Origin: a virus
DNA: 64,000 bases
Reading direction: 5' to 3' (one strand)
Virus record (IMG/VR): IMGVR_UViG_3300010938_000006
Location: 1 to 64,000 of that record
Position numbers and translations under genes: made by a program. Numbering within the stretch: position 1 is the first letter of the stretch; each line of letters starts with the position of its first letter. Positions 1,035-52,759 of this stretch are shown in pieces. The notes beneath the pieces are model-generated. The model was not told the origin of the DNA. It did no database searches and saw only the letters and a program-made list of their open reading frames with translations.

Positions 1035-1419
1035 TATAATGACCTATTCTTTGTTCAATCATTTTAGCCATATCAGTATCATTTTTGATATCGGCATCTT
1101 TATATACATAGGCTTTTTTTAAAGCTTCTATGTAGTCTCTTTGTTCGTCATTTTCAGCAAATTGTATAAGATCTTCAGTTTCCTTTAGAACTTTATCATA
1201 TTCTTCTTTTGAAGTAAAGACTATTTTTTCATTTATAACTTTTTTTAGCTTTTTGATACCTTGTAGATACAACTCTTGTTGTCTATTAATTACTATTCTA
1301 GGCACATTTAATTGTTGTACAGTAATTTTACGCTCTATCTTTCTATCTCTCCATAGAAGATATTCAAAATATAAATTACCTAACCAACTTGTATAGAATA
1401 GCTTCTTTAGTTTATTCAT
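958..1419 (-). CDS. hypothetical protein
   Basis: ORF track. Likely start is ATG 1419, in an ATGA overlap with the phoH stop. Confidence 0.5.
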   Translation of the reverse strand: MNKLKKLFYTSWLGNLYFEYLLWRDRKIERKITVQQLNVPRIVINRQQELYLQGIKKLKKVINEKIVFTSKEEYDKVLKETEDLIQFAENDEQRDYIEALKKAYVYKDADIKNDTDMAKMIEQRIGHYNELRKHREKREKARAERRNSKLPKV

Positions 1420-2234
1420 AGGTTTTCTACCGCCCAATGAGCTAAGTCACTACGCAAGCTTTTACGCATAGTTATGTGACCAATTAAAGGAGAATCTTTA
1501 CCTTTTTCTACTATAGCTTCTAAGCCAGTAGTATTAATCTTTTCAAATACTTGACTAGGATCTCCTAAAATAATAACTTTCGTTCCTTCTCCAGCACGAG
1601 AAATAATCTGTTTTAAGATATTAGCTTCTAGATTCTGGGCTTCATCAATAATAATCACAGAATTACTAATAGAACGACCTTGAATAAAGGTAATAGGAGT
1701 TATTTCCAATTCATCATCTTGAATCATTTTTTCCATTTGATAGTATGGAATATCGCAATGAATGAAATTATCTTTAAATGGTCCTAACCAAGGCATCATC
1801 TTATCATTCATTGTGCCTTTAAGATATCCGATGTCTCTTCCTACAGGAGTTAAACTCTTAGCTATAACTATTTTAGCTATGTTATTCTTCTTATGCTGAT
1901 GAATAGCATACGCACAAGCTAGTAATGTTTTACCACTGCCAGCGGCTCCTAGAATAGTTACTAGTTTTATTGAATCGTCTCTAAGCAATTCTAAAGCTAT
2001 GGTTTGCTCAGTATTTTTAGGATAAATGTTGCACGGGCTATTAGAAGTGATTCTAACTATATAATCCCCCTTAACGATTCCATGTTCTTTGCAATCGTCT
2101 CCCTTTAACACTACTCCCATATTAGAATAGAACTTACACTTCTTATTTAAAGATTTTATCTCAATCTTTCCATCAGCATACCAAGCATTCCAATCGTGGA
2201 ACTCTATAACTTTAATTCCGCTATATTTTTCCAT
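1416..2234 (-). CDS. phoH: PhoH-like ATPase
   Basis: Walker A GAAGSGKT, Walker B IIIDEAQN, PhoH-like length and order. Confidence 0.85.
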   Translation of the reverse strand: MEKYSGIKVIEFHDWNAWYADGKIEIKSLNKKCKFYSNMGVVLKGDDCKEHGIVKGDYIVRITSNSPCNIYPKNTEQTIALELLRDDSIKLVTILGAAGSGKTLLACAYAIHQHKKNNIAKIVIAKSLTPVGRDIGYLKGTMNDKMMPWLGPFKDNFIHCDIPYYQMEKMIQDDELEITPITFIQGRSISNSVIIIDEAQNLEANILKQIISRAGEGTKVIILGDPSQVFEKINTTGLEAIVEKGKDSPLIGHITMRKSLRSDLAHWAVENL

Positions 2235-2520
2235 TTTTATCTTTATTTAGGTACTTGTGAAGAGTTTTAGCTGACATTACAAATACTTCTAGAAGATCAG
2301 AATAATACATTCTTTCTTCTTCTTTTTTCATGAAGTCAACCATTTGCTGCTTTCCAAATTTAATCATACGAGCAGCCATGCGCTTCTTTTCTTTACAAAT
2401 ATGGCAATCACACTTACCAGTTTCCATTTTCCTATCATAACAGGCTTGGAAACGTTCTTGATAAGATTTATGATCTTTTTTTAAAGGAAGGCCAGTATAA
2501 AAATCTATGATTTTTGACAT
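2221..2520 (-). CDS. hypothetical protein (CDCHIC motif)
   Basis: 99-aa ORF overlapping its neighbours in operon fashion. Confidence 0.5.
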   Translation of the reverse strand: MSKIIDFYTGLPLKKDHKSYQERFQACYDRKMETGKCDCHICKEKKRMAARMIKFGKQQMVDFMKKEEERMYYSDLLEVFVMSAKTLHKYLNKDKNGKI

Positions 2521-2741
2521 AATTGTGATTCCTCATTGTCCAACTTTTTTTTTAATCTGATAGCAATTTTAAAGGATTTTCCACAACCAGTATTCACTAT
2601 TTTGCCAAATTTTCTAACTAAATGCGGCTTAATTCTACGTTTGACACAGTAAGCCCCACTTGAAGTTCGATTTTTGAAATCTAACTCTATGACTATATTA
2701 GCGAAACTGTTGCAGTGCGGACAACTAATCTTGTTAAGCAT
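2505..2741 (-). CDS. hypothetical zinc-ribbon protein
   Basis: CPHC ... CGKS cysteine pairs in a 78-aa ORF. Confidence 0.45.
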   Translation of the reverse strand: MLNKISCPHCNSFANIVIELDFKNRTSSGAYCVKRRIKPHLVRKFGKIVNTGCGKSFKIAIRLKKKLDNEESQLCQKS

Positions 2742-3188
2742 TTAAGCTCCAGTTGAACCGTATCCATTCGTACCACGTTCTGATTCGGCCAACTCTGACG
2801 TTTCTTCTATTTCCACAGTTGGAAAAGGCATTACGATAAGTTGGCCCACCCTATCACCAACATTATATTCCATATCTTCATTATTATCATCATAACGAAA
2901 ACGAAAGCTAACTTCTCCACGATATCCAGAATCTATCACTCCAACGGAATTAGCTAAAGTGTGTGATGTCTTGCTTATACTAGAACGAGGAAAAATCAGT
3001 CCAACATAACCTTCAGGAATCTCAAAGGATAGCCCTGTCCCAAATTCAATATACTTATAGTCTCTATTTCTATATACATCAATAGCGGTTAGATCCATTC
3101 CAGCGTCCCCAGGCTTAGAATAAGAAGGGAGAACGGCATTAACTGCTAGTTTCTTTACTTTAACTTTAATCGGATTTTTTGGGTGCAT
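2742..3188 (-). CDS. dut: dUTP diphosphatase
   Basis: dUTPase motifs GDAGMDL, GVIDSGYRGE, ERGTNGYGSTG. Confidence 0.9.
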   Translation of the reverse strand: MHPKNPIKVKVKKLAVNAVLPSYSKPGDAGMDLTAIDVYRNRDYKYIEFGTGLSFEIPEGYVGLIFPRSSISKTSHTLANSVGVIDSGYRGEVSFRFRYDDNNEDMEYNVGDRVGQLIVMPFPTVEIEETSELAESERGTNGYGSTGA

Positions 3189-3432
3189 AGATCATACCTA
3201 GATTTTCTTTCAGTTTATTTTGGGTATTCTGCTTCAATTCTTTTGGAGCAGAGGTCTGCATAGTCATCATATGAGCTATAGCCTTAAGTTTACTAAACTT
3301 TCGACCAGCCTCAGTATCAAACTTAATATGGAGGTCAACTCCAAAAAGGACAATTTTATCACCCATTTTGACCAACAGATGACCGCCAACTAAAAAGATA
3401 TTTCCTATAAAATTCTTTATTTTCATAATCAT
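3166..3432 (-). CDS. hypothetical protein
   Basis: 88-aa ORF in operon context. Confidence 0.45.
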   Translation of the reverse strand: MIMKIKNFIGNIFLVGGHLLVKMGDKIVLFGVDLHIKFDTEAGRKFSKLKAIAHMMTMQTSAPKELKQNTQNKLKENLGMIYAPKKSD

Positions 3433-3464
3433 ATTATACCACTCTTTAAAAAGAATAACCAGAT

Positions 3465-4400
3465 TTATTCTTGTTCTTCATCGCCTTCTAATAAATCGAA
3501 ATCCTCTCCCCATTGATCTTTATGCGTATTTTTGTATTCTTGTATAGCATCTTTATCATTGGGAATGATAGCGTCCGCAGTAATAACAAATTCTCCAGAA
3601 TTAGTAGTATTTGAAATATGATTCTTATCTACTTGAATTTTTGAGATAATTCCGAATCCCATTTTCTGACCATTTACCGTAGCATACAACTTCTGTCTGC
3701 GAGAAGTTTTTATTACTAAGCTACTTCGGAACCAAATAGCATTACCGCCATAAGGAACCGTAGTGAAAGGTCCACCAGGAAACTGAGGAGGTTGAACATA
3801 AGCTTGGTTTAAAATAACTAATCCTACAGATTTAGGATACGAAATTTTCCGAGTATCGTTTATCTTTTTAGAGATAACCCGCATACGTTCTGAAATAACT
3901 TTAGCAGCTTTCATCATAGTGGACTTCTTTTCCCAAGTCCCGTCTTTTTGAACTTCTATTTCATCTTTACTTAGCGTATTGCCAACACTATCCCACATAA
4001 TAAGAACGTCAGTAGGTAAATCTCCCATACTAACGTCAGAGGTAATCTTATCAATAAAAGCAAAGGCATCTTCAAGAAAATCTAAACCTTCTTGGACAAT
4101 GGCACTATCTTTATCAAAATTCATTTGCTTAGCTCTATCCCAATCTACTTTTCCTTCTGTTATAATCATAACAGGCATAATACCCATCTTTTGGGCCTGA
4201 GCGGCGGCATGAAACATTAAACTGGTTTTTCCAGTATCACTTAGCCCATAGATTTGAGTAATATGACCTAGAGGTAATCCATGTATCCCAATAACTTGTT
4301 TTAAGCAATCATCTAATTCTACAAATACGTCTTGTTTTAGCGGAGTATCTGCTACTTTAATACTTTTTTTGTACGCATCTAAATCAAATTTCTTAGCCAT
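3465..4400 (-). CDS. RecA-fold recombination ATPase (UvsX/Sak4-like)
   Basis: Walker A GLSDTGKTS, Walker B LIMWDSVG, RecA-like core length. Confidence 0.6.
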   Translation of the reverse strand: MAKKFDLDAYKKSIKVADTPLKQDVFVELDDCLKQVIGIHGLPLGHITQIYGLSDTGKTSLMFHAAAQAQKMGIMPVMIITEGKVDWDRAKQMNFDKDSAIVQEGLDFLEDAFAFIDKITSDVSMGDLPTDVLIMWDSVGNTLSKDEIEVQKDGTWEKKSTMMKAAKVISERMRVISKKINDTRKISYPKSVGLVILNQAYVQPPQFPGGPFTTVPYGGNAIWFRSSLVIKTSRRQKLYATVNGQKMGFGIISKIQVDKNHISNTTNSGEFVITADAIIPNDKDAIQEYKNTHKDQWGEDFDLLEGDEEQE

Positions 4401-4409
4401 ACTAACCTC

Positions 4410-4700
4410 TTACCAAAAATGAACTATATTTTTTAATTCTTTGGGTTTATCAATTTTTACAATTTTAGGAAAATTGTCTAATTTTTCATCTAAATATATA
4501 GCTTTGTACCATGATTGAGTACCACTAAGAGAACAAACTTCCTTATATGCTTCTTCTACAACAGCATATTTATAATATCCGTGTTCAAACAAATCTGTCC
4601 AATTTTCTAATACGCATTTTTCTGCTGTTTCAAAATCAGAATACCATCCCCAAGTTCTACAACCTTTTGGACGAGTTATAGATTTCATACATACGACCAT
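4410..4700 (-). CDS. hypothetical protein
   Basis: 96-aa ORF. Confidence 0.5.
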   Translation of the reverse strand: MVVCMKSITRPKGCRTWGWYSDFETAEKCVLENWTDLFEHGYYKYAVVEEAYKEVCSLSGTQSWYKAIYLDEKLDNFPKIVKIDKPKELKNIVHFW

Positions 4701-4720
4701 GCATACTTTTTTTACGTTCT

Positions 4721-5143
4721 TTATCGCTCATAAGAATCTATTAGAAAATTATTATAGATGTATAAGTATCCAGGAACAAAGTTTTTTGGTTTTTCCGTTA
4801 TGGTTAAAGATGACGGAGCCAACTCAAAGCTAAAATATATTTCTTGTCTTTTAGCCATTTTTTTAGATATCCCATTAAATATATTTAGCCATTCTATCGT
4901 ATACAATCTTAACTTATTTAAGTCTTCTTCGCAAATACAAAATGCAGTAACATTTAAAGTTTTGCCTTTTGGAAGATTAAAAGATTTCTTATTTGAAGAC
5001 TTGTATAGAAGTTTTCCTATTGGAAGTAATTCATCTGTTGCCCAACTGTAAAACTTTTCATAAGGAGAATTCATTTTACTAGTGCCTCTAAATTTAGACA
5101 TTCTAGGAAGTTTAATAATCTTATGTATTTTCTGTCTAGCCAA
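4721..5143 (-). CDS. hypothetical protein
   Basis: 140-aa ORF. The track start is TTG, so the true start may be an internal ATG. Confidence 0.45.
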   Translation of the reverse strand: MARQKIHKIIKLPRMSKFRGTSKMNSPYEKFYSWATDELLPIGKLLYKSSNKKSFNLPKGKTLNVTAFCICEEDLNKLRLYTIEWLNIFNGISKKMAKRQEIYFSFELAPSSLTITEKPKNFVPGYLYIYNNFLIDSYER

Positions 5144-5483
5144 GCTTTTGTCCTATAGATTTACGTGCAGACTTTCCACCAGTAGCCAAAACAAGTAAGT
5201 ATCCTATACGAAATTCGTTAATATCATAGGCATCGGTTCTAGAAGAACGAAATTTCTTCATATATGCTCGAATAGAGTAAATTCCATAAGCTCGTTCTAG
5301 TCTACATCCTAAAGACCGATGACCTCGTTTATCGCTACTTTTTAGATAAGTAATTACTTAGTTAACGGTTAACACTCAATTGTTTTTAACTGAGTTTTTT
5401 ACTCGTCTCTTAACTAAATTAGTATTCGTTGTATTAATAAACGTTACCAAATCTCGGTAGAGTTGTTCGCTTTTAGTAATCAT
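5136..5483 (-). pseudogene. 115-codon reading frame with two internal stops (TGA 5376-5378, TAA 5358-5360)
   Basis: ATG 5483 sits in an ATGA overlap with the upstream stop. The frame stays open to TAG 5136 apart from the two stops, which flank the palindrome GTTAACGGTTAAC. It could also be two mini-ORFs. Confidence 0.35.
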
Positions 5484-5791
5484 ACTTCCTCTTTATTATA
5501 TAGTAAATCTGCTGATCGGCCATCATAAGGTATATTATGGATGTTCTTAAATGCATAAGTGCCAGTAATTTCTTCTTCAGAATCCTCTTTGTAAGCATTA
5601 ACTGATCCATTTATATCAGACACTAACTTATAACAAATAGCAGTGGGAGTATCTAAAAATGTTACATCTATAATAGATCCCTTTTTCTGATTAAAATAAA
5701 AATGGGTCACTTTAACTTTAACATTGGTTCCACGTATGTAAGCTTGTTTATTTAGAATTTCGTGAGGGTGTTTCATTTTTATATAGCTCAA
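5480..5791 (-). CDS. hypothetical protein
   Basis: 103-aa ORF. Confidence 0.5.
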   Translation of the reverse strand: MSYIKMKHPHEILNKQAYIRGTNVKVKVTHFYFNQKKGSIIDVTFLDTPTAICYKLVSDINGSVNAYKEDSEEEITGTYAFKNIHNIPYDGRSADLLYNKEEV

Positions 5792-6326
5792 ATAAGCTCT
5801 TCTTCATTCTACCTTGAGGAGTAATTCCTAAAGAAGAAAGTTTTTGTTCGTACTCTTTTAATATACCAAAAACTTGTTCAGTTGTAAAGTTGTTTACTTT
5901 ATCTTCTAAAAATTCAATTTCTAAATATCGAGCTTGTTCTTTTAATTCTGGATCATATACAATATAGTACACAATATCTACATTTTGATAGTAATAAATA
6001 AAACAATACTTAAAGATTTTAAAGTTTTGTTTGTATCCTTCTAAAGCTACAAAAGATTCGACTAAGCTTTCATCACTAGGTCTTAGTGGTAAATTTATTT
6101 CAATGCGATCTTGATTATTAGATTCAGTTGTTTTTCTTTTTATTGTAAGTTCTGGCTTTTCTTTACTATTTCTATACCTTATAAAATTACTTTCTTTATT
6201 AATATAGTATGTATCCCAACTAGATACTTCTAAATGTCGTAGTGGATTCAAAGTCTTAGCGACTTTATGAAAGTCACTCAACTTAATATCATTAGCATTG
6301 AATTTAAATTCGTATTCTTTATTCAT
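5748..6326 (-). CDS. CYTH-like (triphosphate tunnel metalloenzyme) domain protein
   Basis: N-terminal EYEFKF (ExExK signature) followed by alternating charged strands ELTIKRK and RIEINL. Confidence 0.45.
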   Translation of the reverse strand: MNKEYEFKFNANDIKLSDFHKVAKTLNPLRHLEVSSWDTYYINKESNFIRYRNSKEKPELTIKRKTTESNNQDRIEINLPLRPSDESLVESFVALEGYKQNFKIFKYCFIYYYQNVDIVYYIVYDPELKEQARYLEIEFLEDKVNNFTTEQVFGILKEYEQKLSSLGITPQGRMKKSLFELYKNETPSRNSK

Positions 6327-6543
6327 ACAGCATTTTAATTATAGCAGCATTGCCTTTTGTGATCAATATATATTTATCTAAATTACAAAAATCAGTTTTA
6401 TGGTAGAATCATTTATCGTAATTGAAGTCTTTGCAACGATAATAATAAGATTCATCAATTATATCTAAAATTTGTATTACAATAGATCCAGAAATTAAGC
6501 AATCATTTTTGTTAAACTTAGGGGCGTAAGCCTCTTTTTTCAT
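6319..6543 (-). pseudogene. LLY-tail family small ORF interrupted by in-frame TGA (6409-6411)
   Basis: ATG 6543. Reads MKKEAYAPKFNKNDCLISGS...NYDK*FYHK...AAIIKMLYE. The final TATGAATAA overlaps the start of the next gene. Confidence 0.55.
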
Positions 6544-7045
6544 ATAACACTCTCAAATAGTAGTCAATATTTTGTTCGGTGGGAGGTCTAGAACGAAGTA
6601 GAGGGTCCATTAAATCTCCTTGGTCCTCAATTTCTTTATCTACATGCGAAACATTATAACAGTGTAATAGTTCATGTAAAAGAACTATACGAATTTCATA
6701 GTCCTTAAGACTATCTGATAATTCTATATAACAGTACAAAGGATTGACATAGGAAGATCCTAATCGTACATAATCGTCAACATCTTGTGAAGAATCTACA
6801 ATATTTACAACAATAGGTCTTAATCCAAAGGTAAAACTAAATAATTTGCCATCTAACCTTTTATTGAATTCTGCAGCGTATTCTAAGGTTTTCATTCCTT
6901 CATAGTTATTGTCTAATACAGTAAATACTGGAGCGGGCATAAATATATCTCGCTCTCTAAGAATAGTTGATATTCTTATCCCAACGTACAGGTTTATAGC
7001 TATGGTCATTAAAATCATGCTTAAATTTTTAATGAATTTTATCAT
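6518..7045 (-). CDS. membrane-anchored zinc metalloprotease (HExxH)
   Basis: N-terminal TM helix and HELLHCYNVSH zinc-binding motif. Confidence 0.5.
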   Translation of the reverse strand: MIKFIKNLSMILMTIAINLYVGIRISTILRERDIFMPAPVFTVLDNNYEGMKTLEYAAEFNKRLDGKLFSFTFGLRPIVVNIVDSSQDVDDYVRLGSSYVNPLYCYIELSDSLKDYEIRIVLLHELLHCYNVSHVDKEIEDQGDLMDPLLRSRPPTEQNIDYYLRVLYEKRGLRP

Positions 7046-7046
7046 A

Positions 7047-9338
7047 CTATTTTGCTTCTGCCCAATTTCCTGCGGCTTTAGGTTCGGCTACTAGCGGAAC
7101 ACTTAGTTTAACTACATTTTCAGCACGCCTTCGCATAATTTCTTTAACTGTTTCAACAATATCAATAGCGCATTCTACAATGATTTCATCGTGAACTTGT
7201 AAAATAATGTGTGCATCTAAGTTCTTTTCTATAAACTCTTTTTGAATGTTAATCATTGCTCGGTTCACTATATGGGCTGCCAACCCTTGAATTTTAAAAT
7301 TTTTAGAATTATTAAGTAGATTTTTATACTCTCTTCGTTGCTTTAACATTCCTCTTTTTGCGGCCCATTTATAATTTAATAGTTCATCGCCATATAAATT
7401 ATACATCAACTTACATTCTTTAAGATGGCGAATCCTTCCAAATACGGTTCTTACCATTCCGTTATGTTTAGCTTCAAAATCACACGTTTTCATGTATCTG
7501 TGCAAATTAGGATAAGCTAAAAGATACTCACTAACTAGTTTAGCGCCCTCATCTTTATTTATTCCTAGTAGTTCTCCAATTCTATGACCTTCGGCACCAT
7601 ATGCTACTGCCAAAGCCATAGCTTTAAAGATATTTCTAATCTCTGGAAACAGATTTCCCAAAAAGGTTTCTTTATCTTTTTTAAAGGTAGAAACTTCTGG
7701 TCCATATTTTTTAACTTTTTTGGCAATTGAACTATAAAAGTCTTCGTTTTTTTCAAAAATTTCTTGTAAACCTTTATCTCCACTCATATGAGCAAAGCAC
7801 CTAGGCTCCAAACTACTATAATCCATATCTACTAATCGATACCCATCCCTACAAATAAATCCTTTACGAATAGCATTAGTATACTTACGTACTAAGGGTG
7901 AAATGTCAGCATCATCACCTTTAACTCTAGGCAAGTTTTGTAAGTTTGGATTACGACTACTAAATCTTCCTGAGGTTGTTCCAAATTGCAACATACTAGC
8001 GTAAATAATTCCATCTACTTGTCTTTCTAAAATACCTTCAATATAGGTACTGTGAAGTTTATTAAGTTTTTTGAATTCGATAATTTTTACTATCTCTGGA
8101 TATAAATTTTTAATGCTTTCTAAGAATTCATCATCAATCTTAGGTTTTCCAGTTTCAGTTTTTTCTAGTGAGCTTAAATTCCACTCAACACATAGTAATT
8201 GAGCCAAATGATCGTTACTTCTTAAATTGAATACGTTTCTTTGCTCTGGATTTCCTATAAAGAACAATTTTTCTTGTATTTGTCTTGTTACTTTACTATT
8301 AAATGGCGCTTTAGTTCCTGGTTCTGTTATCCAATCATAGAAGGCTTTAAATTGCGGAGTGACCTGTGCTTGCTGCAGTATTGCTTTTTTAGATAAAGTT
8401 ATCTTATTAGTTTTCTTATTAATAGGTAAAGGGATTCCTAAAACATCTGCCGCAGCTTTAGGAAAATTGCCAGTATTTTTTACTGGATAATCTTTATCCA
8501 ATAAACTTTGTTCAAAATCTTGTATATAATTCTTTATTGAAGTAATTACAGAATCTTCTAGTTTATCTATTTCTTTTTGAATAGTAGTACGCAATCTAGA
8601 GAAATACTCTACGTCTACTTTAAAACCCCTTCGCTTCATAGCTATAGTGACCGTTTTATATAATGGCATCACTTCTTCATCGTAAAAGAATTGTCTAAGT
8701 TCTTCTTCGTTTATTTTCTCTTCAAAGATCGTAAATAACATATAAGTAAGCATAACATCCCAACAACAGTACTCTCCTAGTATGTTTGTGTCAGCTTTAT
8801 GCATATCCATATGTTCTTTAGTTGCTCTACCACCATTAGCTTTGATATTTTCAACTAATTTTTCTTTAGCTTTGTCCGCCCACGGTCCTAGATAAGCAAC
8901 AGCTACCTCTTTTAATCCAAAAGGATTTTCTTCATCTAGGCAATGTTTTCCTAAAATAGTATCATGATATAGATAGTCTGCTATTTTAATTCCCCAATGA
9001 TGCTCAAGAACTAAAACGTCATAAATAATATTATGGCCAATAATTTTCTTAGTAGGAATGAAAGATTTTAACCAAGCCAAAATTTCTTGTTGTTGTTGGA
9101 CATCCCAAATTAAATTACCTTCTTTATCTCTCCAAACTAGATAAAAAGCTTTATGATTACTTAAACATAAACCAAGACCGTAAATATTGGCTGATTTTTC
9201 GATTAAAGAATCTGATTCAATATCAAGTACCAAATGTTCGGATTTTATAGCAGAGCAATAAGTCTTAAGTCTCTCAAAAAGAGCCCAATCATTAACTAGA
9301 TAGGTATCAAATTTAGGTTGAATATCAAATTTGTGCAT
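7047..9338 (-). CDS. polA: family A DNA polymerase with 3'-5' exonuclease domain
   Basis: Exo motifs LDIESDS and HNIIYDVLVL. Pol motif A DMDYSSLEPR, motif B FKAMALAVAYG, motif C QVHDEIIVE. Confidence 0.9.
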   Translation of the reverse strand: MHKFDIQPKFDTYLVNDWALFERLKTYCSAIKSEHLVLDIESDSLIEKSANIYGLGLCLSNHKAFYLVWRDKEGNLIWDVQQQQEILAWLKSFIPTKKIIGHNIIYDVLVLEHHWGIKIADYLYHDTILGKHCLDEENPFGLKEVAVAYLGPWADKAKEKLVENIKANGGRATKEHMDMHKADTNILGEYCCWDVMLTYMLFTIFEEKINEEELRQFFYDEEVMPLYKTVTIAMKRRGFKVDVEYFSRLRTTIQKEIDKLEDSVITSIKNYIQDFEQSLLDKDYPVKNTGNFPKAAADVLGIPLPINKKTNKITLSKKAILQQAQVTPQFKAFYDWITEPGTKAPFNSKVTRQIQEKLFFIGNPEQRNVFNLRSNDHLAQLLCVEWNLSSLEKTETGKPKIDDEFLESIKNLYPEIVKIIEFKKLNKLHSTYIEGILERQVDGIIYASMLQFGTTSGRFSSRNPNLQNLPRVKGDDADISPLVRKYTNAIRKGFICRDGYRLVDMDYSSLEPRCFAHMSGDKGLQEIFEKNEDFYSSIAKKVKKYGPEVSTFKKDKETFLGNLFPEIRNIFKAMALAVAYGAEGHRIGELLGINKDEGAKLVSEYLLAYPNLHRYMKTCDFEAKHNGMVRTVFGRIRHLKECKLMYNLYGDELLNYKWAAKRGMLKQRREYKNLLNNSKNFKIQGLAAHIVNRAMINIQKEFIEKNLDAHIILQVHDEIIVECAIDIVETVKEIMRRRAENVVKLSVPLVAEPKAAGNWAEAK

Positions 9339-10450: not shown

Positions 10451-10690
10451 TTATATATATTTAGCAAAGTCATTTAACATATTATGGTGTAACAATACGT
10501 CATATTTTATGTGTTTTGGGCTGTTCTTATTTTTAAGAACTTTGGCCTTTATTTTAAGAGCAAATTTTTTATTATTTTCTACTTGTAATATCATTCCATC
10601 TGATAGGATAAGAATATCTTCTATTTCACAATCTTGGATATCCTTATAAGTACCAGTTTTATACCAAATATTCAATACATCAGTTCCCAT
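10451..10690 (-). CDS. hypothetical protein
   Basis: 79-aa ORF. Confidence 0.5.
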   Translation of the reverse strand: MGTDVLNIWYKTGTYKDIQDCEIEDILILSDGMILQVENNKKFALKIKAKVLKNKNSPKHIKYDVLLHHNMLNDFAKYI

Positions 10691-10919
10691 ATAGAATTTT
10701 TATGGCTTTACCAGTCATTTTAGTTATTTGACCTTTATTGAACATTAATTGATTAAACATATAATGTTTACTATTAGAATTCTTTCTCTTTCCAAAAATT
10801 ATTTTGCCGTAGCCAAAAGCTTTATTTCTACCCCAAACTTTAATTATGATTGTGCCATTGATAGGGCTTTTAATTTGAATGATAGAGCCTTTCCTTATAC
10901 TCTTCCATTCTTGTTTCAT
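10680..10919 (-). CDS. LLY-tail family small protein
   Basis: Ends KAIKILYGN. Has an SH3-like GSIIQIKSP strand. Confidence 0.55.
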   Translation of the reverse strand: MKQEWKSIRKGSIIQIKSPINGTIIIKVWGRNKAFGYGKIIFGKRKNSNSKHYMFNQLMFNKGQITKMTGKAIKILYGN

Positions 10920-21716: not shown

Positions 21717-21792
21717 TGGTTGCAGGCCAAGGACTCGAACCTTGTATCTCCACGTTATGAGCGTGGCGAGATAACCCATTCTCCAGCCTGCT
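21717..21792 (-). tRNA. tRNA with CAT anticodon (Met, initiator-like, or Ile2)
   Basis: 76-nt cloverleaf folded by hand. D stem GAGA/TCTC, anticodon stem CCACG/CGTGG, loop CTCATAA, T arm CAAGG-TTCGAGT-CCTTG, encoded CCA. Has an A1-A72 mismatch and an A11:U24 pair. Confidence 0.85.
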
Positions 21793-21808
21793 AAAACTAA
21801 TTATAGCA

Positions 21809-22912
21809 CTATCGTTTTATAAGTCCAGTCAAATCATTTTTGTGACAAGCATTATAATACGGACAACGACCACCATACCAATTTTCACATTTATCCGTAT
21901 TCTTGTACACAATTCCTTCCTTCATCGCATGAATAATATTGCTATAATCTTTAAATAGGTCTTGAATTTGTTCTTGTGTTTTACGTTGAGTTAACAGTTG
22001 TACTTCTGGCTTAAGTTTTTTGGTAACTTTCCAGGTACCTCCACACCGGCCATTATTTATCTCAGCATTACAAGTGTGATGTCGGCTATCTTTAATATTG
22101 CCACAATTATTACAAGTGGCTATTTCTTCTTTTTGAATGTTTTTACACAACACCACATACCCTACTAGGTCTGTTTGATGTACAGCACCCTCAAGAGCTA
22201 AATATAGGGTTAGTTGTTCTGTTAAATCAATGTGCTCTTGAGTGTATGGTTGTGAAGAGGTTTTTAAGTCTAAAATTAAAGGCTTATCATATCCTTCTAA
22301 TTCTACAATCATATCTACCATTGCTACTATGCTATCTCCAGTTTGTGAATCTAGGATGCTGCTTTGCTTTTGAGTAGATAATACTTTAGTAATTTTTGGA
22401 TAGAATTGGTCTACAAAGGCTTCAATTAAAATTCTACCCTTGTTATCTAAAGAGAGCCAACTCGCTCTATTAAAGAATATTAACTGATTTGCGGTAGTTT
22501 TGATATAGGGATTCTTCTTAATCTTAGTGACTTCTTTTTGAATCTCTACGCCAGTTTTACCTAAACCAGTTAAACCTAGCTGGATTGCCCAATCCATCAA
22601 CACTTGATGGTCTTGTGGTTGTAAAACATATTCATCAAAATCAGCATTAGAAAATGCTATGTTGGGATTATCAAAAATTTGATGGGTTTTATTGTTTACG
22701 TTGGATTGCTTCCAATTATCATGAAACAACTTCATGTAGTTAGAGGTTAATCCGTTCTCCAACAAATGCATTACAGCCATGTCTACAGCCGAACCAAAAT
22801 ATGTTGAAGCTCCTTCTACGGGAGATTTTAGTCTTTGATTATAACTCCAGTCCCAAAATTTAGGGCACTGAATATAAGTACTATTTTGACTATATGATGT
22901 TTTGTGCGACAC
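21809..22912 (-). CDS. Cas4-like PD-(D/E)XK exonuclease with Fe-S cysteines
   Basis: N-terminal YIQCP Cys plus C-terminal CENWYGGRCPYYNAC. Inserted CNNCG...CNAEINNGRCGG ribbon. GTG start. Confidence 0.7.
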   Translation of the reverse strand: MSHKTSYSQNSTYIQCPKFWDWSYNQRLKSPVEGASTYFGSAVDMAVMHLLENGLTSNYMKLFHDNWKQSNVNNKTHQIFDNPNIAFSNADFDEYVLQPQDHQVLMDWAIQLGLTGLGKTGVEIQKEVTKIKKNPYIKTTANQLIFFNRASWLSLDNKGRILIEAFVDQFYPKITKVLSTQKQSSILDSQTGDSIVAMVDMIVELEGYDKPLILDLKTSSQPYTQEHIDLTEQLTLYLALEGAVHQTDLVGYVVLCKNIQKEEIATCNNCGNIKDSRHHTCNAEINNGRCGGTWKVTKKLKPEVQLLTQRKTQEQIQDLFKDYSNIIHAMKEGIVYKNTDKCENWYGGRCPYYNACHKNDLTGLIKR

Positions 22913-25589: not shown

Positions 25590-26458
25590 CGTATTCTATC
25601 TAAATTAGTATAAATCGGCTTACCCTTTACTTTTTTTACGAAAGTAGGCCAAACTATACCATATTTCTTAATAACTCTATTTATAACGGCCCACACTGCA
25701 TCTTCACTCATTTTAAGGCTTTTTGCTGCATCAGTCAATTGCATATTTTGTATAAAAACTTTGTTCAATATTTTCAATTGCTTCTTATTTAAATTATTTT
25801 CATTCTCTTCAATAAACTTACGCATGATAGCGAATTTACTTAGTTTTGTTAAAGCATAGTATATAGTGTACTTGGCTTTGTCTTCATTAAGGAGTCCGAA
25901 TTTGTCTGCTACATATTTAAAATCATTACCTTTAAAGAAATACTGTTGTACCATATCTTGCTTTCGCTTACTCAAACAATCCCAAGGTAATTCTAAATTA
26001 GAATTTGGAAATAGGCTTATAATTTCAGCCCCTTCAGTGTACTCTTCTGAGGAATATTCCAGGTTCTCTTTATACATAAGATAAGGCTCTTCTATCTTAT
26101 TCCTGTGCATAAAATCGTTTATTTGTCCACAGGGGGAATCGCAAGTGGCTTTTATGGGACAAGTGTCACACCTACTAATAAAAAGTTCGCCTTGGGCAAT
26201 ATTTTGAGTTTTAGCTAATTCGTCAAGATAAGGTTTAGCCGTAGGGCTTTTCCAAGGTAAAGGCCGACCAATACACTCTTTACCTATACATACGGCTCTT
26301 TTAGGGCATTCATCATAACTTTGACCATAAATATCTATACATTCTTGCTTAATTTGTCTAAGAATTTCAAAGCGTTTATCAAATGGAATAAGAGAATACC
26401 AAGGAGGTAAACTACAAGCAGGAGGCTTATTTTGTTCTTTCCATTTTTTTTCATCCAT
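25586..26458 (-). CDS. Cys-rich protein with C-terminal HTH (sigma region-4-like)
   Basis: LTDAAKSLKMSEDAVWAVINRVIKKYG helix-turn-helix plus several N-terminal Cys pairs. Confidence 0.3.
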   Translation of the reverse strand: MDEKKWKEQNKPPACSLPPWYSLIPFDKRFEILRQIKQECIDIYGQSYDECPKRAVCIGKECIGRPLPWKSPTAKPYLDELAKTQNIAQGELFISRCDTCPIKATCDSPCGQINDFMHRNKIEEPYLMYKENLEYSSEEYTEGAEIISLFPNSNLELPWDCLSKRKQDMVQQYFFKGNDFKYVADKFGLLNEDKAKYTIYYALTKLSKFAIMRKFIEENENNLNKKQLKILNKVFIQNMQLTDAAKSLKMSEDAVWAVINRVIKKYGIVWPTFVKKVKGKPIYTNLDRIR

Positions 26459-26753
26459 AAAGTAACTTCAAAAACTTTATTTTTTTATTGGTTTTTTGTT
26501 TACTTATACTAGTGAAGATTCTAGTATCATTATCAATTTCATAACAAAATACTGTAGTGTAATGATTACTAATATCTAACTTACTTGTATAGATATTAGT
26601 ATATACTAAATTTACAGAATATCTAGTAATTTTATGTGGCCTAGTTTCCCAAGTAGAATCAGAAATGTCATCTTCTAAAATAGAAGTGACTATGTAATAG
26701 TTTAAATCTCGTATATTCTTTAAAATATCACCTATCTTTAGATTCTTGTTCAT
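26451..26753 (-). CDS. LLY-tail family small protein
   Basis: LKIGDILKNI near the N-terminus. Ends KFLKLLYG. Confidence 0.55.
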   Translation of the reverse strand: MNKNLKIGDILKNIRDLNYYIVTSILEDDISDSTWETRPHKITRYSVNLVYTNIYTSKLDISNHYTTVFCYEIDNDTRIFTSISKQKTNKKIKFLKLLYG

Positions 26754-37470: not shown

Positions 37471-37767
37471 TTATCCTTTAAAATCAAAATTGATATTCAA
37501 ATCTCCATCAACTTGAACATTGTTGTCTTCAACAACAGATTGGGTACTTGATTCTTCTTCATTAGAACCATCGACGCTAAAGAACGTCAATTCTTTAAGC
37601 ATGGTCACAACACTAATGATTTGTACTCCATACGTTAGACCGTACACTCCATTAGCTTGTTCAAGAAACTCGGCAGACTTAGAATAAGCACGAGCTTCAC
37701 GAAGAGTATTAAACTCTGCAAAGACATCATCATTAACACGGACTTGATAATTAACAGTGCGATTCAT
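37471..37767 (-). CDS. hypothetical acidic protein
   Basis: Start set to ATG 37767, after a TTGGAGG SD. Confidence 0.5.
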   Translation of the reverse strand: MNRTVNYQVRVNDDVFAEFNTLREARAYSKSAEFLEQANGVYGLTYGVQIISVVTMLKELTFFSVDGSNEEESSTQSVVEDNNVQVDGDLNINFDFKG

Positions 37768-37799
37768 AGGAACCTCCAATATGTTTATTATAGCAATTC

Positions 37800-40641: not shown

Positions 40642-40878
40642 TTAATTATACAGAATAAAGTCCATCTTGGATGCTTTTTTTATTAGCTTACATCTCATAT
40701 CTATACTCTCACAACTAATCCTAGCTTTTTTCCCAGTACTGTAACAATATAGTTCGTATTGAGCGTATTTGATAGCTAATTCATTAATTACTTTACATAT
40801 CAAAAAGATTTGAGATTGCGCTAGTGGGCGGGGTGCGACTGTAACTTGAATTATATCTCCAGCTTTAAACTTAGTCAT
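40642..40878 (-). CDS. LLY-tail family small protein
   Basis: FKAGDIIQV near the N-terminus. Ends MDFILYN. Confidence 0.55.
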   Translation of the reverse strand: MTKFKAGDIIQVTVAPRPLAQSQIFLICKVINELAIKYAQYELYCYSTGKKARISCESIDMRCKLIKKASKMDFILYN

Positions 40879-41155
40879 AAAGTAATTGTAGTAGTTTTTG
40901 TGAAACTAAAATACTATTTTTATTTAAAGATAAAACAGGGTAATCACAATTAAACCCATTAAGGCTATTAATTCCTGTATGCCGTACTAGTAACCCATTG
41001 TCACTTTTAGGATATCTGTTCTCATATATCAAAGTGATGTTATAAAAAGACTTTTCTTTATAGAGAATAGCTTCAATTCTGTAGACTTCTATGTTGCCTT
41101 CTTCATCATATAGTAACACATGGTCGCCACAATAAAAATTTCCTTTACTCTCCAT
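40871..41155 (-). CDS. LLY-tail family small protein
   Basis: FYCGDHVLLY near the N-terminus. Ends LLQLLYD. Confidence 0.55.
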   Translation of the reverse strand: MESKGNFYCGDHVLLYDEEGNIEVYRIEAILYKEKSFYNITLIYENRYPKSDNGLLVRHTGINSLNGFNCDYPVLSLNKNSILVSQKLLQLLYD

Positions 41156-41386
41156 ATAGCAATGGTCCTAGTTTACCTGCAGGCATAACTAGTTCTGATT
41201 TTGGATCAAATCTTTCTGCGCTCCACTCATAAACCTTTGGTTTCTTTGCATTAACAAACTTAACTTTATACTTAGCATATCCACTAGCAGTAAACAAGAC
41301 ACATTCAATAATAGCTTTAGACTTACCAAATTGCCCTTTGGTAAGAACAATATCGCCCGCATTAAATTTATAAGTTTTATTCTCCA
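41145..41386 (-). CDS. LLY-tail family small protein
   Basis: Start set to ATG 41386 (MENKTYKFNAGDIVL...). Ends LGPLLYGE. Confidence 0.55.
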
Positions 41387-41571
41387 TATAAATCTTCAAC
41401 CATTATACTCTCTCGTATTTTAAATGCAATACCATCTACCCAATTAACAAAAGCTGTTGCCTGATTATCTTGTTTATACAGCTTATGTATTTTAAATCAG
41501 TTTTTAAAAAATAGATTGTCAATTCAATAAACATTAGATACAATCCTCTCCGTCTTTGTGCCCCACATCAT
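41377..41571 (-). pseudogene. LLY-tail family ORF with two in-frame TGA (41524-41526, 41497-41499)
   Basis: MMWGTKTERIVSNVY*IDNLFFKN*FKIHKLYKQDNQATAFVNWVDGIAFKIRESIMVEDLYGE. The end embeds the next ATG. Confidence 0.5.
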
Positions 41572-42591: not shown

Positions 42592-42846
42592 TCAATGAAT
42601 TACTTGAGGCTTAAATGTGCTAGTTGAACTATCATCCCACTCATCCTTTAATGAACAACCGTCCCAATCTATTGGGTAGAATACGTGAGCATTATTTAAA
42701 TCCCACATGGGATCAGTTTTAACAATACCAACGTGTCGTTTCCATACTTGGTATGCTACCACTGTACGTGTACCAATATCAATAACTTTCCACGCTCCAC
42801 TATCAGTGTAAAAGTATTTGCCTATTTTAAATTCTACAAGCTTCAT
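42592..42846 (-). CDS. hypothetical small protein (FKIGKYFYTDSG strand)
   Basis: 84-aa ORF. Confidence 0.5.
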   Translation of the reverse strand: MKLVEFKIGKYFYTDSGAWKVIDIGTRTVVAYQVWKRHVGIVKTDPMWDLNNAHVFYPIDWDGCSLKDEWDDSSTSTFKPQVIH

Positions 42847-43078
42847 CTGTATATATCTCCAAATCCCATTTCTTTGGTTTCTTATTTACAAACCTGTGGC
42901 TGGTTAAATAATCATCAAAATCACAATCGTGAGAACGCTCCATTCTTTCGAATAGGTATATGGTATCCTCACTAAGAGGAGCGGCACGATAACTAAGCAT
43001 TCTAATAGGGTATTCTGTAACCGTATCATTTAAACCCATCGCTTTAACACGGCCTAATTCTTTAACTTTAAAGGGCAC
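42827..43078 (-). CDS. hypothetical protein
   Basis: 83-aa ORF with a GTG start. Confidence 0.45.
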   Translation of the reverse strand: MPFKVKELGRVKAMGLNDTVTEYPIRMLSYRAAPLSEDTIYLFERMERSHDCDFDDYLTSHRFVNKKPKKWDLEIYTDEACRI

Positions 43079-43187
43079 TTATAAGTCCGTTAGTTGTTTT
43101 TATAGCATCATCAATAGTAGAGGTAATGATTGTATTTTTATTCCAACTCATAATATATTTTCTTCTATAAATTTTTTTGAATTCATA

Positions 43188-43469
43188 TTACTCTCCGTAT
43201 AATTATAGCAATATCTTATCATTTCGCAATATCTTTTTAGTATATTTTACTAAAGTCTTTTGTCTAAATGTTGTGGTTTGTCCACTAAATGATTTATTTA
43301 AAGCCATTACTTGCCACTCTTGTCTATTCTTATCTCTTGATTTCTTCAATTGTTTCAATATTAATAGTTCTGGTAGACTTGCAAAATTGCCTTCTAGAAT
43401 ATCGCCAACTTTTATATGATTAATTGACTCCATATAATAATCGTCCAAATTTTGAACCGATAATTTCAT
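43188..43469 (-). pseudogene. LLY-tail family ORF whose conserved tail lies beyond an in-frame TAA (43203-43205)
   Basis: ...IKVGDILEGN...KKILRNDKILL*LYGE, then TAA at 43188-43190. The family C-terminus LYGE is only reached by reading through the first TAA. Confidence 0.6.
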
Positions 43470-43626
43470 AATTCTCTAGTAAAATAGACCTTTCTACACG
43501 ATGTGCAAAACCTTGCCTATCCAAAATAATATATTGATCTCCATCCTTTAAGATGATTACAAATACGTTTTTAGTGCGTTTATTTATTGCAAAGTTGCCG
43601 ATTGTAATTGACATGATACTACCCAT
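43420..43626 (-). CDS. LLY-tail family small protein
   Basis: Ends KFGRLLYGVN. Confidence 0.55.
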   Translation of the reverse strand: MGSIMSITIGNFAINKRTKNVFVIILKDGDQYIILDRQGFAHRVERSILLENYEIIGSKFGRLLYGVN

Positions 43627-44803: not shown

Positions 44804-44811
44804 AGGTGCTT

Positions 44812-45201
44812 ATGCAAGAATTCTGTATTGGAGACATCGTACAACTTAGAGATGGTAACGTTTATAAAATTGAGAACATTCGATATATTCCTCGTGGCCA
44901 TGCTAAAGACGGTATAGGTGGTAATCTGTATACGTTGCATTGCATTACATTTCCCGAAGAATATAAAAGTTATTATGAGACTAGGATGCGTAATGAGGCA
45001 TTAGTTGTGCAATTCTCAAATCAAGTTGACGATAAGTTTATTGAGACTATTAGCGATCCAATGCCTGCAATCGGCGTACCCGCATTAGATAAAAGTGTTA
45101 AGAGTACCTCTAAACTTAAACCTATTGACACTAGGCCGCTTGCTAAAGTTTATATCCTAGCAGAATATAGACAACGTAAACAACTTAGACGCCGTGCCTA
45201 A
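44812..45201 (+). CDS. hypothetical protein with SH3-like FCIGDIVQLRDG strand
   Basis: SD TAGAGGTGCTT then ATG 44812. Confidence 0.55.
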   Translation: MQEFCIGDIVQLRDGNVYKIENIRYIPRGHAKDGIGGNLYTLHCITFPEEYKSYYETRMRNEALVVQFSNQVDDKFIETISDPMPAIGVPALDKSVKSTSKLKPIDTRPLAKVYILAEYRQRKQLRRRA

Positions 45202-49044: not shown

Positions 49045-49599
49045 CTTATATAGTTAACATTTACAGTAAAGGCACAATTAGTTAAGGGTTTAGGTATAGG
49101 CATATACATAGATAAGGGTTTATACTTGTAATTCCTATGCCTAGTTATCAATATAACCTAGTATAGTCTTAGTTGAATACTAGTTACTAGATATATTTAT
49201 ATAGTAACTGTTAAGTATTAATACACTAGTGGCAATTAATCACACTAGATATATAGATAAGTATTTAATAAGATTAGATAATAAGACTGTTATTGTATAG
49301 TATTTATATGGTATATAGCAACTATATTCACCATATCATACCCTCTGTATATTTATAATTAATCATTATCACTATTAAATCTGTCTCATACGCACTCATT
49401 ATATCACACTATTTACAATAAGTCAATACATTATTTAGATAATGTACCTAGTATACTACTACTATACTAGTTAATTATGTACTAATTATGGGGTGAGTGT
49501 GCTAACAATAGCATATTATACTTATTTACTATTATCATTATATGATATAAGTATATTATTATTTAATTATTATATTGCGCTTCTTATGCCGACAGATTT

Positions 49600-49610
49600 C
49601 CCCCCCCCCC
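49600..49610. repeat. C11 homopolymer
   Basis: Run of 11 C followed by TATATACCCC. Confidence 0.9.
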
Positions 49611-49971
49611 TATATACCCCTTAAGAATTAGCATTATATTATATAAGTATAATAGTATTATACGATATTAGTATTTAATCATTATATCATAATAGTATAT
49701 TATTACAATTCTTGTGCCGAGTGAGTGTGGCCCGATTTTTGCAATATAATCATTATAGTATAATATCATAATTTAATACTTTACTATTATTAGAATATAG
49801 TAGTATATACACTTTAGCTAATAAGTTAATATATTTGTATATGTTATGAAGTATGCAATAGGTGTGTAAGGATTATATATAGATAAGTAGTTGATATAAT
49901 TGAGAAAGGGGTATACGGTGGGAAATTTACCTCCTCCCCACACCCCTAGAGGTACAAAGACCTTGCAAACA

Positions 49972-50027
49972 GTTTTGAAATTTTTAAAAAAATTGAAAAA
50001 CGGGCATAGATATGGTACTATCTAGAC
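49972..50027 (+). promoter_or_regulatory. repeat element R1 (A-tract / CGGGC / GGTA / CTAGAC)
   Basis: TTTTGAAATTTTTAAAAAAATTGAAAAACGGGCATAGATATGGTACTATCTAGAC, similar to R2. Confidence 0.4.
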
Positions 50028-50306
50028 ATGCACGAGCTCTATATAGTAACTAAGTGCCTACAAGCTTTGAACCTAGACTTAATAGGATTCCCTCAAATGA
50101 TTATGATTATTAAGGTAGGAAGTATAGTCAAGGTTAATAGAGAACATACTATCATAGATACAGTAAATAAAGAAAACAAAATACATAATATATACATAGA
50201 CTTAATCCATCCTAGCTTAGCTAATAATCTATTAGTAAATAGAAAATCCTTCTACGAGTATACAGAGAAGTTCAAAGGACCAATGGTAGACCTCCTATAC
50301 AAATAA
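50028..50306 (+). CDS. LLY-tail family small protein
   Basis: IKVGSIVKVNREH strand. Ends MVDLLYK. The true start may be the internal MIMII. Confidence 0.5.
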   Translation: MHELYIVTKCLQALNLDLIGFPQMIMIIKVGSIVKVNREHTIIDTVNKENKIHNIYIDLIHPSLANNLLVNRKSFYEYTEKFKGPMVDLLYK

Positions 50307-50316
50307 GGGGGGGGGG
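50307..50316. repeat. G10 homopolymer
   Basis: Run of 10 G directly after the stop of the 50028 ORF, followed by AGTATACCC. Confidence 0.9.
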
Positions 50317-50352
50317 AGTATACCCTAATAAAATCGCAGGTTTGAGATAGGC

Positions 50353-50995: not shown

Positions 50996-51199
50996 ATAGA
51001 TAATTGTAGTTTTAAATTTGACCAACGAGTTGTAGTTACAGGTCAATATTTAAACGACCAAATAGTTCACGTTACTATTCATTGCCCTGAAACTGCTGCC
51101 CTTTCAGCTATGCAGATAGTCATGACTGAAGAACAACTTTATAAGATGGTATTACCTATAAATACTAATATTTCCAAGACTTTATATGCTTCCGAGTAA
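50996..51199 (+). pseudogene. LLY-tail family ORF without a canonical start (ATA at 50996)
   Basis: Frame is open from 50981: (ATA)DNCSFKFDQRVVVTGQYLNDQIVHVTIH...ISKTLYASE. No ATG/GTG/TTG until late in the frame. The end embeds the next ATG. Confidence 0.45.
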
Positions 51200-51467
51200 T
51201 GATTGGATAGATACGGCTGGTGTTAGTTGTTATCAATATAAAGCTGTGGTTGTTAATCAGTCTATAGAACAGTTTATGCATTTTGAGGTTGGGACTAAGG
51301 TTATAATCCATTATATACTTAAGGATAATAAAGTAATTAGTATATTAGTACTCAATCCTAAAACTGGTGTACAAATGATATTTGATTCTGTTTTTTCCAG
51401 CATTGAAGAAATTAATAAGACTTTCCTTAATATAAACATTAGGTTAGCGAAGAAACTATATGAGTGA
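51186..51467 (+). CDS. LLY-tail family small protein
   Basis: Ends RLAKKLYE. Confidence 0.55.
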   Translation: MLPSNDWIDTAGVSCYQYKAVVVNQSIEQFMHFEVGTKVIIHYILKDNKVISILVLNPKTGVQMIFDSVFSSIEEINKTFLNINIRLAKKLYE

Positions 51468-51954
51468 TAAATATAAGATTTTTCCTGAAGACTCTAAGGC
51501 TTGGCCCTTTGAGGCTAAAAGTGGTTTAGTAGAAGAATTACAAAAACAACAATACGAAACTAAATTACGGAAAATGGAACACATTATTCGTGCCTATCCA
51601 GGCTCTATAGATAGCACTATTAAGCCTAATCTAAATTCTAAAGAACGTATTAAAGAACGATTAGAGCAACAATTAACTAATATTGAAAAAGATTTAGAGA
51701 ATATAAAACAAAATTTAGATAGAATTCCTAATATTAAATACGACGTTGGTATGGCAGTATTTCATAAAAGTATGGGTAATGCCATTATTACTAATATTTA
51801 TTTGAATGAAATGGACGGTATTAATTTGCCAGTCCAGGCCGACTTTACTGATGGTTATGTATACGAGATCGTTGGCGTACAAGGCAAATTTAAGGCTAGA
51901 GAGCATGAGCTAATACCAATAACCGAACTTACTACTAATCTTTACTGCAAATGA
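51460..51954 (+). CDS. LLY-tail family protein (longer, coiled-coil N-half)
   Basis: Ends LTTNLYCK. Confidence 0.5.
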   Translation: MSDKYKIFPEDSKAWPFEAKSGLVEELQKQQYETKLRKMEHIIRAYPGSIDSTIKPNLNSKERIKERLEQQLTNIEKDLENIKQNLDRIPNIKYDVGMAVFHKSMGNAIITNIYLNEMDGINLPVQADFTDGYVYEIVGVQGKFKAREHELIPITELTTNLYCK

Positions 51955-52244
51955 GCGTAAATTGCTTATATGAACCAGGCGAATTAGTAAAGCTAATTAC
52001 GCACGAAATTCATGAAGAAGGTAGAGCTATTTCTGAATATTGGGAATATTGGATAGTTACTGGAGTTTATTTAGTTACGGAAATTGATACTTATGAATAC
52101 TCTTCTAGAACTCCTTGTTTTACTTATACTTTAGTAAGCATAGCTGACAGACAAAGAAAAACGATAAATATACCGGAACATAAGCTAATCCCCTTAACCG
52201 ATTCAGAGGAGTCTTATATAAGGCTATTATATGGCCAGAAATAG
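51951..52244 (+). CDS. LLY-tail family small protein
   Basis: YEPGELVKLI strand. Ends YIRLLYGQK. Confidence 0.55.
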   Translation: MSVNCLYEPGELVKLITHEIHEEGRAISEYWEYWIVTGVYLVTEIDTYEYSSRTPCFTYTLVSIADRQRKTINIPEHKLIPLTDSEESYIRLLYGQK

Positions 52245-52482
52245 GTCTAGGTTCGCTTTGGGTGACTTTGTTGGGTTCAGAGATCCAAATGCACTCAATT
52301 ATCAAATACAGGGCGAAATATTCAAAATTACAGGCATATGGGAATACAATCCTGCATCTAAACTTTATACATATAGAATAGAGCACGTAGCTTTGCGCCA
52401 CCTCTCTTTCATAACAAGTGAGAATAACTTATTAAAAGTAAAGAAGAATCAAGCTAAAATCATACATCTAATATATGGGTAA
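52231..52482 (+). CDS. LLY-tail family small protein
   Basis: FALGDFVGFRD strand. Ends KIIHLIYG. Confidence 0.55.
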   Translation: MARNRSRFALGDFVGFRDPNALNYQIQGEIFKITGIWEYNPASKLYTYRIEHVALRHLSFITSENNLLKVKKNQAKIIHLIYG

Positions 52483-52759
52483 ACGTAGATTTAAAGAAAA
52501 TGATATTGTTTTATTTAAGGCTCCTCCTACAGCTAAACAGGCTGGAATGACCTTAAAACATTCACTTTTATATAAACGTTATGGTCTATTCCAAATTATA
52601 ACCCTTCGAGATAGTGATTGTTTAGTAGTTCCGTATACTTCTGAAATGACTAAAGATTCAAAAGAAAAGATTTTAGGTATATGGATATCTTATAATAAAA
52701 TTAAATACTTAGGCAATCCCCAATCCAACCATCTAGTAGAAATCCTCTACAAAAAGTAA
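52475..52759 (+). CDS. LLY-tail family small protein
   Basis: FKENDIVLFK strand. Ends LVEILYKK. Confidence 0.55.
   Translation: MGKRRFKENDIVLFKAPPTAKQAGMTLKHSLLYKRYGLFQIITLRDSDCLVVPYTSEMTKDSKEKILGIWISYNKIKYLGNPQSNHLVEILYKK

Follow-up and report, generated by a model that had tools for sequence, protein, structure and literature searches.

A small gene of an uncultured tailed phage most likely ends at a genuine TAA stop codon, and the four codons that follow it in frame, L-Y-G-E, are probably what is left of a C-terminal tail that many other small genes of this phage still carry. We put at about 70% the probability that the stop is real and that the vestigial tail has been retained as regulatory and junction DNA at a mosaic boundary. 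The initial annotation of this locus had proposed instead that the first TAA is read as a sense codon, so that the conserved tail is made. The DNA analyzed, which we call the window, is a 64,000-nucleotide stretch (positions 1 to 64,000 of IMG/VR record IMGVR_UViG_3300010938_000006) of a 114,940-bp contig from a phage with a G+C content of 34%. Under the standard code, 85 to 91% of the DNA is coding, and the genes form two blocks, one reading leftward from about 44,000, the other rightward from about 49,900. The large terminase is at most about 28% identical to that of any deposited phage, and a search of the locus DNA against 50,697 phage records returned no match; contigs of related phages were fetched via the neighboring GP88-like gene. 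Between the divergent gene blocks lies about 1 kb of gene-free, very AT-rich DNA (49050 to 50030, with 50303 to 50317) that contains many direct and inverted repeats of 16 to 47 nt, several TGATATAAT sites on both strands, and a C11 tract (49600 to 49610) complementary to a G10 tract (50307 to 50316). This stretch may be an origin or a regulatory region.

The target gene occupies positions 43203 to 43433 on the minus strand (76 codons plus stop; MESINHIKVGDILEG...KKILRNDKILL). Its 3' end reads AAT GAT AAG ATA TTG CTA TAA (N-D-K-I-L-L-stop), with the TAA at 43205 to 43203, and the codons beyond it (43202 to 43188, minus strand) are TTA TAC GGA GAG TAA, that is, L-Y-G-E and a second stop at 43190 to 43188; both the reading and the coordinates in the initial annotation were confirmed. 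Its 88-residue length for the open reading frame was not, although the stop position was correct: the listed frame simply begins at the first ATG after a stop. The true start is almost certainly the ATG at 43433 to 43431 (MESINHIKVGD...), giving a 76-residue protein, because the JGI gene call (P0001) begins there, the codon lies inside the TATG of the upstream family member (43420 to 43626, minus strand, ending ...GRLLYGVN), and the alignment with the only known orthologue (P0002, described below) starts at the same residue. A second contig (L001; JGI Ga0063162_1004386), 99.7% identical to the window over 14 kb, carries identical bases across the stop and the LYGE codons. The two contigs differ elsewhere by three SNPs and two N-containing gap regions, all away from the stop, and the stop site is not a homopolymer. 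Since the second contig carries the same bases, an assembly slip at this position is unlikely, and the chance that the TAA reflects any sequencing or assembly error seems to us close to nil.

The tail to which LYGE would belong is a feature of the phage as a whole. L-Y occurs within the last seven residues of 26 of the 116 likely genes, against about 3 expected, and in 19 of these only one or two residues follow the Tyr; counting Ile as well as Leu before the Tyr, the phage has 29 such tails. The enrichment claimed in the initial annotation therefore stands, but its figure of more than 30 paralogues ending in L-L-Y-G/E does not, as only 9 genes end in L-L-Y and 16 have Gly or Glu after the Tyr. 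Nor does the word paralogues hold for the set: in an all-against-all BLASTP comparison of the window's open reading frames, the tail-bearing genes had no detectable overall similarity. The same endings are found in 15 of 51 open reading frames of the related contig L004 and in 8 of 43 of L014, and a further related contig, L028, has nine L-Y endings along with many in -AIYE or -AIYGE. From 76 true tails in four phages, we derived a position matrix and the consensus [GTS] at position -7, [EK] at -6, [LIM] at -5, any residue at -4, [KE] at -3, [ALVI] at -2, [LI] at -1, the Tyr, [GE] at +1, and then zero to two residues. Roughly one in four small genes of this phage have such an ending. Examples lie at 10680 to 10919, 26451 to 26753, 40642 to 41387, and 51186 to 52759 in the window and, among the relatives, at 1476 to 5867 in L004, in L014, and at 1092 to 9120 and 15679 to 17698 in L028. 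Pfam and PHROGs scans of 10 family members gave nothing at or above threshold, and a literature search for "LLYG" in phage found nothing relevant.

The codons of these tails indicate that the motif is real and that selection on it acts on the protein. Position -1 draws on all six Leu codons without favoring any one of them, and TAT and TAC both encode the Tyr at the genome-wide ratio; a near-terminal Tyr is preceded by Leu or Ile in 78% of cases compared with 17% for internal Tyr residues, with Phe, Val, and Met essentially absent. We also considered a purely nucleotide-level motif, such as a start-codon context or a -10-like element, which is excluded by this codon diversity and by the specificity for Leu or Ile. 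In 17 of the 29 tails, the Tyr codon is TAT followed by G, creating an ATG, and about 13 of these ATGs are the start of the next gene. Such overlap is insufficient on its own to account for L-Y, because other starts that overlap in the same frame use Asn, Asp, or His, none of them preceded by Leu, and tails without an overlapping ATG still carry L-Y. In the related contig L083, a DenV-like gene (Pfam Pyr_excise; 3986 to 4528, 180 residues) ends in ...TVKLLYEQV and runs over the start of the family member that follows; a protein from a known and unrelated enzyme family can thus carry the LY ending too.

A subset of the tail genes shares, besides the C-terminal motif, an N-terminal h-x-x-G-D-h-h motif. 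Seven of the nine genes in which this motif is clear (read from 12 regular-expression hits) bear the tail, the two exceptions being the gene at 44806 to 45201 and the target. The target has h-x-x-G-D-h-h within its first 20 or so residues (MESINHIKVGDILEG), as does that subset of the LY-tail group, whereas its reading frame stops at position -2 of the C-terminal motif, and the motif can be completed only by counting the stop as one of its residues. By these two motifs, we take the target to be a member of the LY-tail group of small proteins that is without the tail.

Taken alone, LYGE behind a stop is a weak observation, since a loose pattern of [LI]-Y and then a stop follows the stop codon in 27 of 2,330 control open reading frames (1.2%). 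The context is more telling. When the stop is treated as a residue, the virtual read-through peptide DKILLxLYG scores 9.8 bits against the matrix, first among the 722 scorable open reading frames of the window and 80 related loci; true tails score from 2.1 to 21.1 bits, with a median of 14.7. Lys at -6, Ile at -5, Leu at -1, the Tyr, and Gly at +1 all fit, and the stop itself occupies position -2, normally the place of Leu, Ala, Val, or Ile. An intact tail on a paralogue at 41145 to 41387 (minus strand), ...GKLGPLLYGE-stop, lies in the same register, its K-L-G-P-L-L-Y-G-E matching K-I-L-L-stop-L-Y-G-E in the target. At the nucleotide level, the 15 bases after the target stop match the tail/start junction of that paralogue, CTATATGGAGAGTAA, at 13 positions; in the target, TAC in place of TAT removes the overlapping ATG, and the next ATG, at 43186, comes after the second TAA. 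The view of the initial annotation that LYGE is no coincidence is thus supported by the register across the stop, the matrix rank, and the N-terminal motif, and we consider that the match is probably not due to chance. A 6-nt insertion (ATTATA) was also considered as the origin of the stop; the register fits better with a stop that replaces one codon.

Nothing that we found suggests sense decoding of the TAA. This phage uses TAA more than any other stop, at the end of 60 of the 116 genes, and TAA followed by T, as here, is a joint commonest stop context (21 cases); in E. coli, UAA-U is among the most efficient terminators. ARAGORN found only a tRNA-Met, and no suppressor tRNA, in the 64-kb window of the 114,940-bp contig; the predicted RNA structure of the 121 nt from 43120 to 43240 was no better than that of shuffled sequences (z = 0.57); an Rfam search at the target stop gave no match; and no second case of a tail-like extension beyond a stop was seen in this phage or in the 80 related loci. 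In a survey of phage stop-codon recoding, TAG and TGA are reassigned and TAA is kept as the terminator (10.1101/2021.08.26.457843, PMC9523058). The homologue check suggested in the initial annotation also goes against read-through, in spirit if not to the letter, as the sole orthologue ends elsewhere, in ...RYSQTNIS, with no in-frame tail; it has an LLY tail in another frame, so the TAA and its downstream extension are not conserved, and reaching that tail would take a frameshift, for which no in-frame slippery heptamer was seen. Programmed or leaky read-through that yields a minor isoform, ...KILL-x-LYGE, with the family tail would explain why the tail is in frame, in register, and closed by a second TAA, and why the relic has no in-frame lesion besides the first TAA. 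Set against the stop usage and the null results above, we regard it as very unlikely, and the gene is best annotated as encoding a 76-residue protein that ends at the TAA.

HMMER, run exhaustively against 1.84 billion representative proteins, returned one homologue, P0002 (71 residues, 51% identity, E = 8e-15), which aligns with residues 1 to 66 of the 76 in the target. Scans of IMG/VR and JGI metagenomes with the target found no relatives, and word-indexed protein searches with the target, P0002, and the paralogue at 41145 returned only the query itself or one near-identical orthologue. AlphaFold2 models of the target and its orthologue are beta-rich, with a mean pLDDT of 57 that is too low to rely on. 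P0002 is carried by two Logan contigs, L082 and L083, of a syntenic related phage whose DNA is 75 to 89% identical to the window on both sides of the locus: L083 positions 1731 to 3724 correspond to window positions 45626 to 43598, and 4681 to 7236 correspond to 41495 to 39050. The segment between window positions 43597 and 41496 is replaced in the related phage. P0002 ends in ...QKTLCRYSQTNIS TAA. Just past this end, within L083 positions 3900 to 3990 (L082 positions 908 to 998), another frame reads KQILANCGPVANLLYSKE and a stop, an LLYSKE tail that forms an ATGA overlap with the next gene, the DenV-like one, which is absent from the window. This out-of-frame tail could reflect a 1-nt indel that cut it off from P0002, or it could be a recombination scar. 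A one-base offset would align KQILAN of P0002 with KKILRN of the target, a similarity that is only suggestive, as the resemblance between the 3' ends of the two genes at the DNA level is not significant (479 of 2,000 shuffles scored as high). What the two known orthologues share is the absence of an in-frame tail, tail-like codons just before the next gene, and unrelated genes downstream. On these points, the 3' end of the target is a mosaic boundary. With only two orthologues, neither of which has an intact tail, we infer the ancestral state rather than observe it.

A proven vestige of an LYGE tail lies 1.8 kb from the target. At 41377 to 41495 (minus strand), 39 codons with no usable start end in ...IMVEDLYGE-stop; they correspond to the 3' end of an L083 gene (4515 to 4799), an intact 94-residue counterpart, and the homology between the two phages breaks at window position 41495. 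No intact gene is present around this fragment, between 41400 and 41755. As judged from this comparison, this genome does contain vestigial tails that survive through their overlap with the start codon that follows. Nearby, the product of the gene at 40871 to 41155 is 43% identical overall to that of L083 positions 5021 to 5278, with the last 12 residues (LVSQKLLQLLYD) identical and the next gene 97% identical, which places a mosaic boundary inside this gene, upstream of its tail, on the evidence of the alignment. The relic and this gene are two further cases of a boundary in the 3' part of a family gene, and they lend some weight to another account, in which recombination with another phage brought in the last 10 or so codons of the target along with the remnant and the genes downstream, so that LYGE would be the tail of another member fused in frame, with the stop already there or acquired later. 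That the target resembles the orthologue only as far as residue 66 of 76 and that everything downstream is unrelated between the two phages would also be expected if this were so. With two genomes, such an event is inseparable from in situ truncation, and its outcome would be the same, a vestigial tail behind a real stop; as a separate explanation, we consider it distinctly unlikely.

If the stop is genuine, the bases that form it may have acquired a second role. The target stop lies inside TGCTATAAT (43210 to 43202), a perfect consensus extended -10 element, and in both contigs the TAA forms positions 3 to 5 of the TATAAT hexamer. A sequence scan identified the whole as a sigma-70-type promoter-like site (43202 to 43229, minus strand) with a -35 element, TTGCGA, at 43229 to 43224, a 16-nt spacer, TG at 43210 to 43209, and the -10 hexamer at 43207 to 43202. 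With 10 of 12 matches and the TG, it had the highest score of a 10-kb scan, one reached by 15 of 49 sites, five of which have the TG extension; taken together, promoter-like matches show no enrichment in this AT-rich region (49, against 48 expected). Exact copies of TGCTATAAT number 7, compared with 2.1 expected. Five are on the coding strand, at 6346, 21808, 37795, 43210, and 44114, and manual placement puts all five at a gene end or between two gene ends, with a gene start or a tRNA downstream. TTGnnn is found 16 to 17 nt upstream in four of the five, the site at 21808 having TGGACT, and the two opposite-strand copies are without such a -35 element. The copy at 37795, upstream of the gene at 37471 to 37779, is conserved in L082. 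At 21717 to 21808 (minus strand), the tRNA-Met comes immediately after an exact TGCTATAAT promoter-like site adjoining the stop of the gene at 21809 to 22912. Near the target stop, no terminator-like site was found between 43100 and 43260, and no stable fold between 43120 and 43240.

Downstream of the stop, GGAGAG (43196 to 43191, minus strand) serves both as the Gly and Glu codons of the remnant and as a Shine-Dalgarno-like sequence 4 nt before the ATG at 43186. This ATG opens a 12-codon mini-ORF, MNSKKFIEENIL (43148 to 43186, minus strand), which passes through an ATGA overlap into a 27-codon open reading frame (43068 to 43151, minus strand) that leads in turn into an 83-residue gene with a GTG start (42827 to 43078). 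The mini-ORF is in the same frame as the 83-residue gene, with three stops between them, and by eye its T-E-S-N-M-N-S-K-K-F... is plausible as the decayed N terminus of a paralogue.

These elements allow LYGE to be explained in part without ancestry, and chance is the rival that they serve best. TTA follows the -10 hexamer in four of the five coding-strand TGCTATAAT sites, and GGAGAG is a plausible Shine-Dalgarno sequence, so that a promoter discriminator (TATAAT-TA), a TAC triplet, GGAGAG, and an AT-rich spacer (TAA) might together spell LYGE where no tail had ever been present; the 1.2% background among control open reading frames and the likewise tail-less annotated product of the orthologue are compatible with this. 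Coincidence would also have to account for the Lys-Ile at -6 and -5, which is in register as well and brings the combined score to the top of the 722, for the tails borne by seven of nine genes with the clear N-terminal motif, for the 13 of 15 bases shared with the junction at 41145, and for the out-of-frame LLY tail immediately downstream of the orthologue. We judge it unlikely, if still to be reckoned with.

Under the reading that we prefer, a genuine stop followed by a vestigial tail, the ancestor probably read ...D-K-I-L-L-L-L-Y-G-E, and a single change, most simply TTA to TAA, would have introduced a stop at position -2 of the tail. Whichever one-step ancestor is assumed (TTA, CAA, AAA, or GAA), the hexamer has five of six matches, so the change that created the stop would also have perfected the -10 element, completing TGCTATAAT, which together with the TTGCGA 16 nt upstream makes a near-consensus extended -10 promoter. 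The remnant would then most likely persist as regulatory DNA for the next module, contributing the -10 element, the start region, and the GGAGAG before the ATG at 43186, and probably not as coding sequence. The direction and nature of the mutation, the activity of the promoter, and the absence of read-through are all points that we infer from the DNA sequence.

The family as a whole, more than the single truncated copy, merits experimental attention: it offers an uncharacterized motif that dozens of small proteins, in other respects dissimilar, have in common across at least five contigs of related phages. One speculative idea is that the LY ending is a portable C-terminal signal, a docking site or degradation tag for a host factor. 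The target and its orthologue would then be two independent cases in which access to the signal was cut off or made conditional, by an in-frame TAA in one and a +1 offset in the other, and rare recoding could yield a minor tailed isoform. The E. coli protein SulA ends in ...NLYH, and Lon protease recognizes that end. We hold the whole of this proposal to be improbable; if it were true, roughly one in four small genes in a clade of uncultured phages would carry the signal, in bases that also encode the start of the gene behind it.

Several described systems resemble parts of this locus. A short extension that makes sense, in frame behind a stop, recalls programmed read-through, of which the Q-beta A1 protein, made by read-through at UGA, is an example, and the reassigned codes of some phages. 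The target differs from these: its TAA stands in the usual terminator context, it is a single case, the window has no suppressor tRNA, and the arrangement is not conserved in the orthologue. As a recoding candidate it does not hold up. As in translationally coupled phage operons, the TAT-G of the tails is often the ATG of the next gene, but plain stop/start overlap leaves the Leu or Ile before the Tyr unexplained. For shuffling junctions marked by a promoter, the closest described analogue is the PeSL cassette of T4-type phages (PMC2839356; PMC4122927). Like it, the target site has a strong sigma-70-like match at the boundary of a replaced module between close phages (the window and L082/L083), in a region of small ORFans. 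PeSL couples its promoter to a stem-loop terminator, and there is no stem-loop or terminator at the target site; PeSL is a noncoding cassette, whereas the element repeated at these junctions is coding, a tail overlapping the start codon of the following gene; and these phages, with a terminase only about 28% identical to known ones, are not T4-type. The target also resembles the paralogues truncated by a nonsense mutation, or vestigial gene ends, of phage ORFan arrays that evolve by birth and death in hyperplastic regions, where the last residues are likewise lost to a stop and the old codons stay legible. The truncated copy is in itself ordinary. It differs from the usual vestigial gene end in that its stop coincides exactly with a consensus extended -10 hexamer, and the stop-creating change may have been kept for promoter function rather than by neutral decay. 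The locus shows cleanly how a stop codon and a consensus -10 element can share bases at a mosaic junction, which suggests one route by which new transcription starts could arise inside packed phage ORFan arrays.
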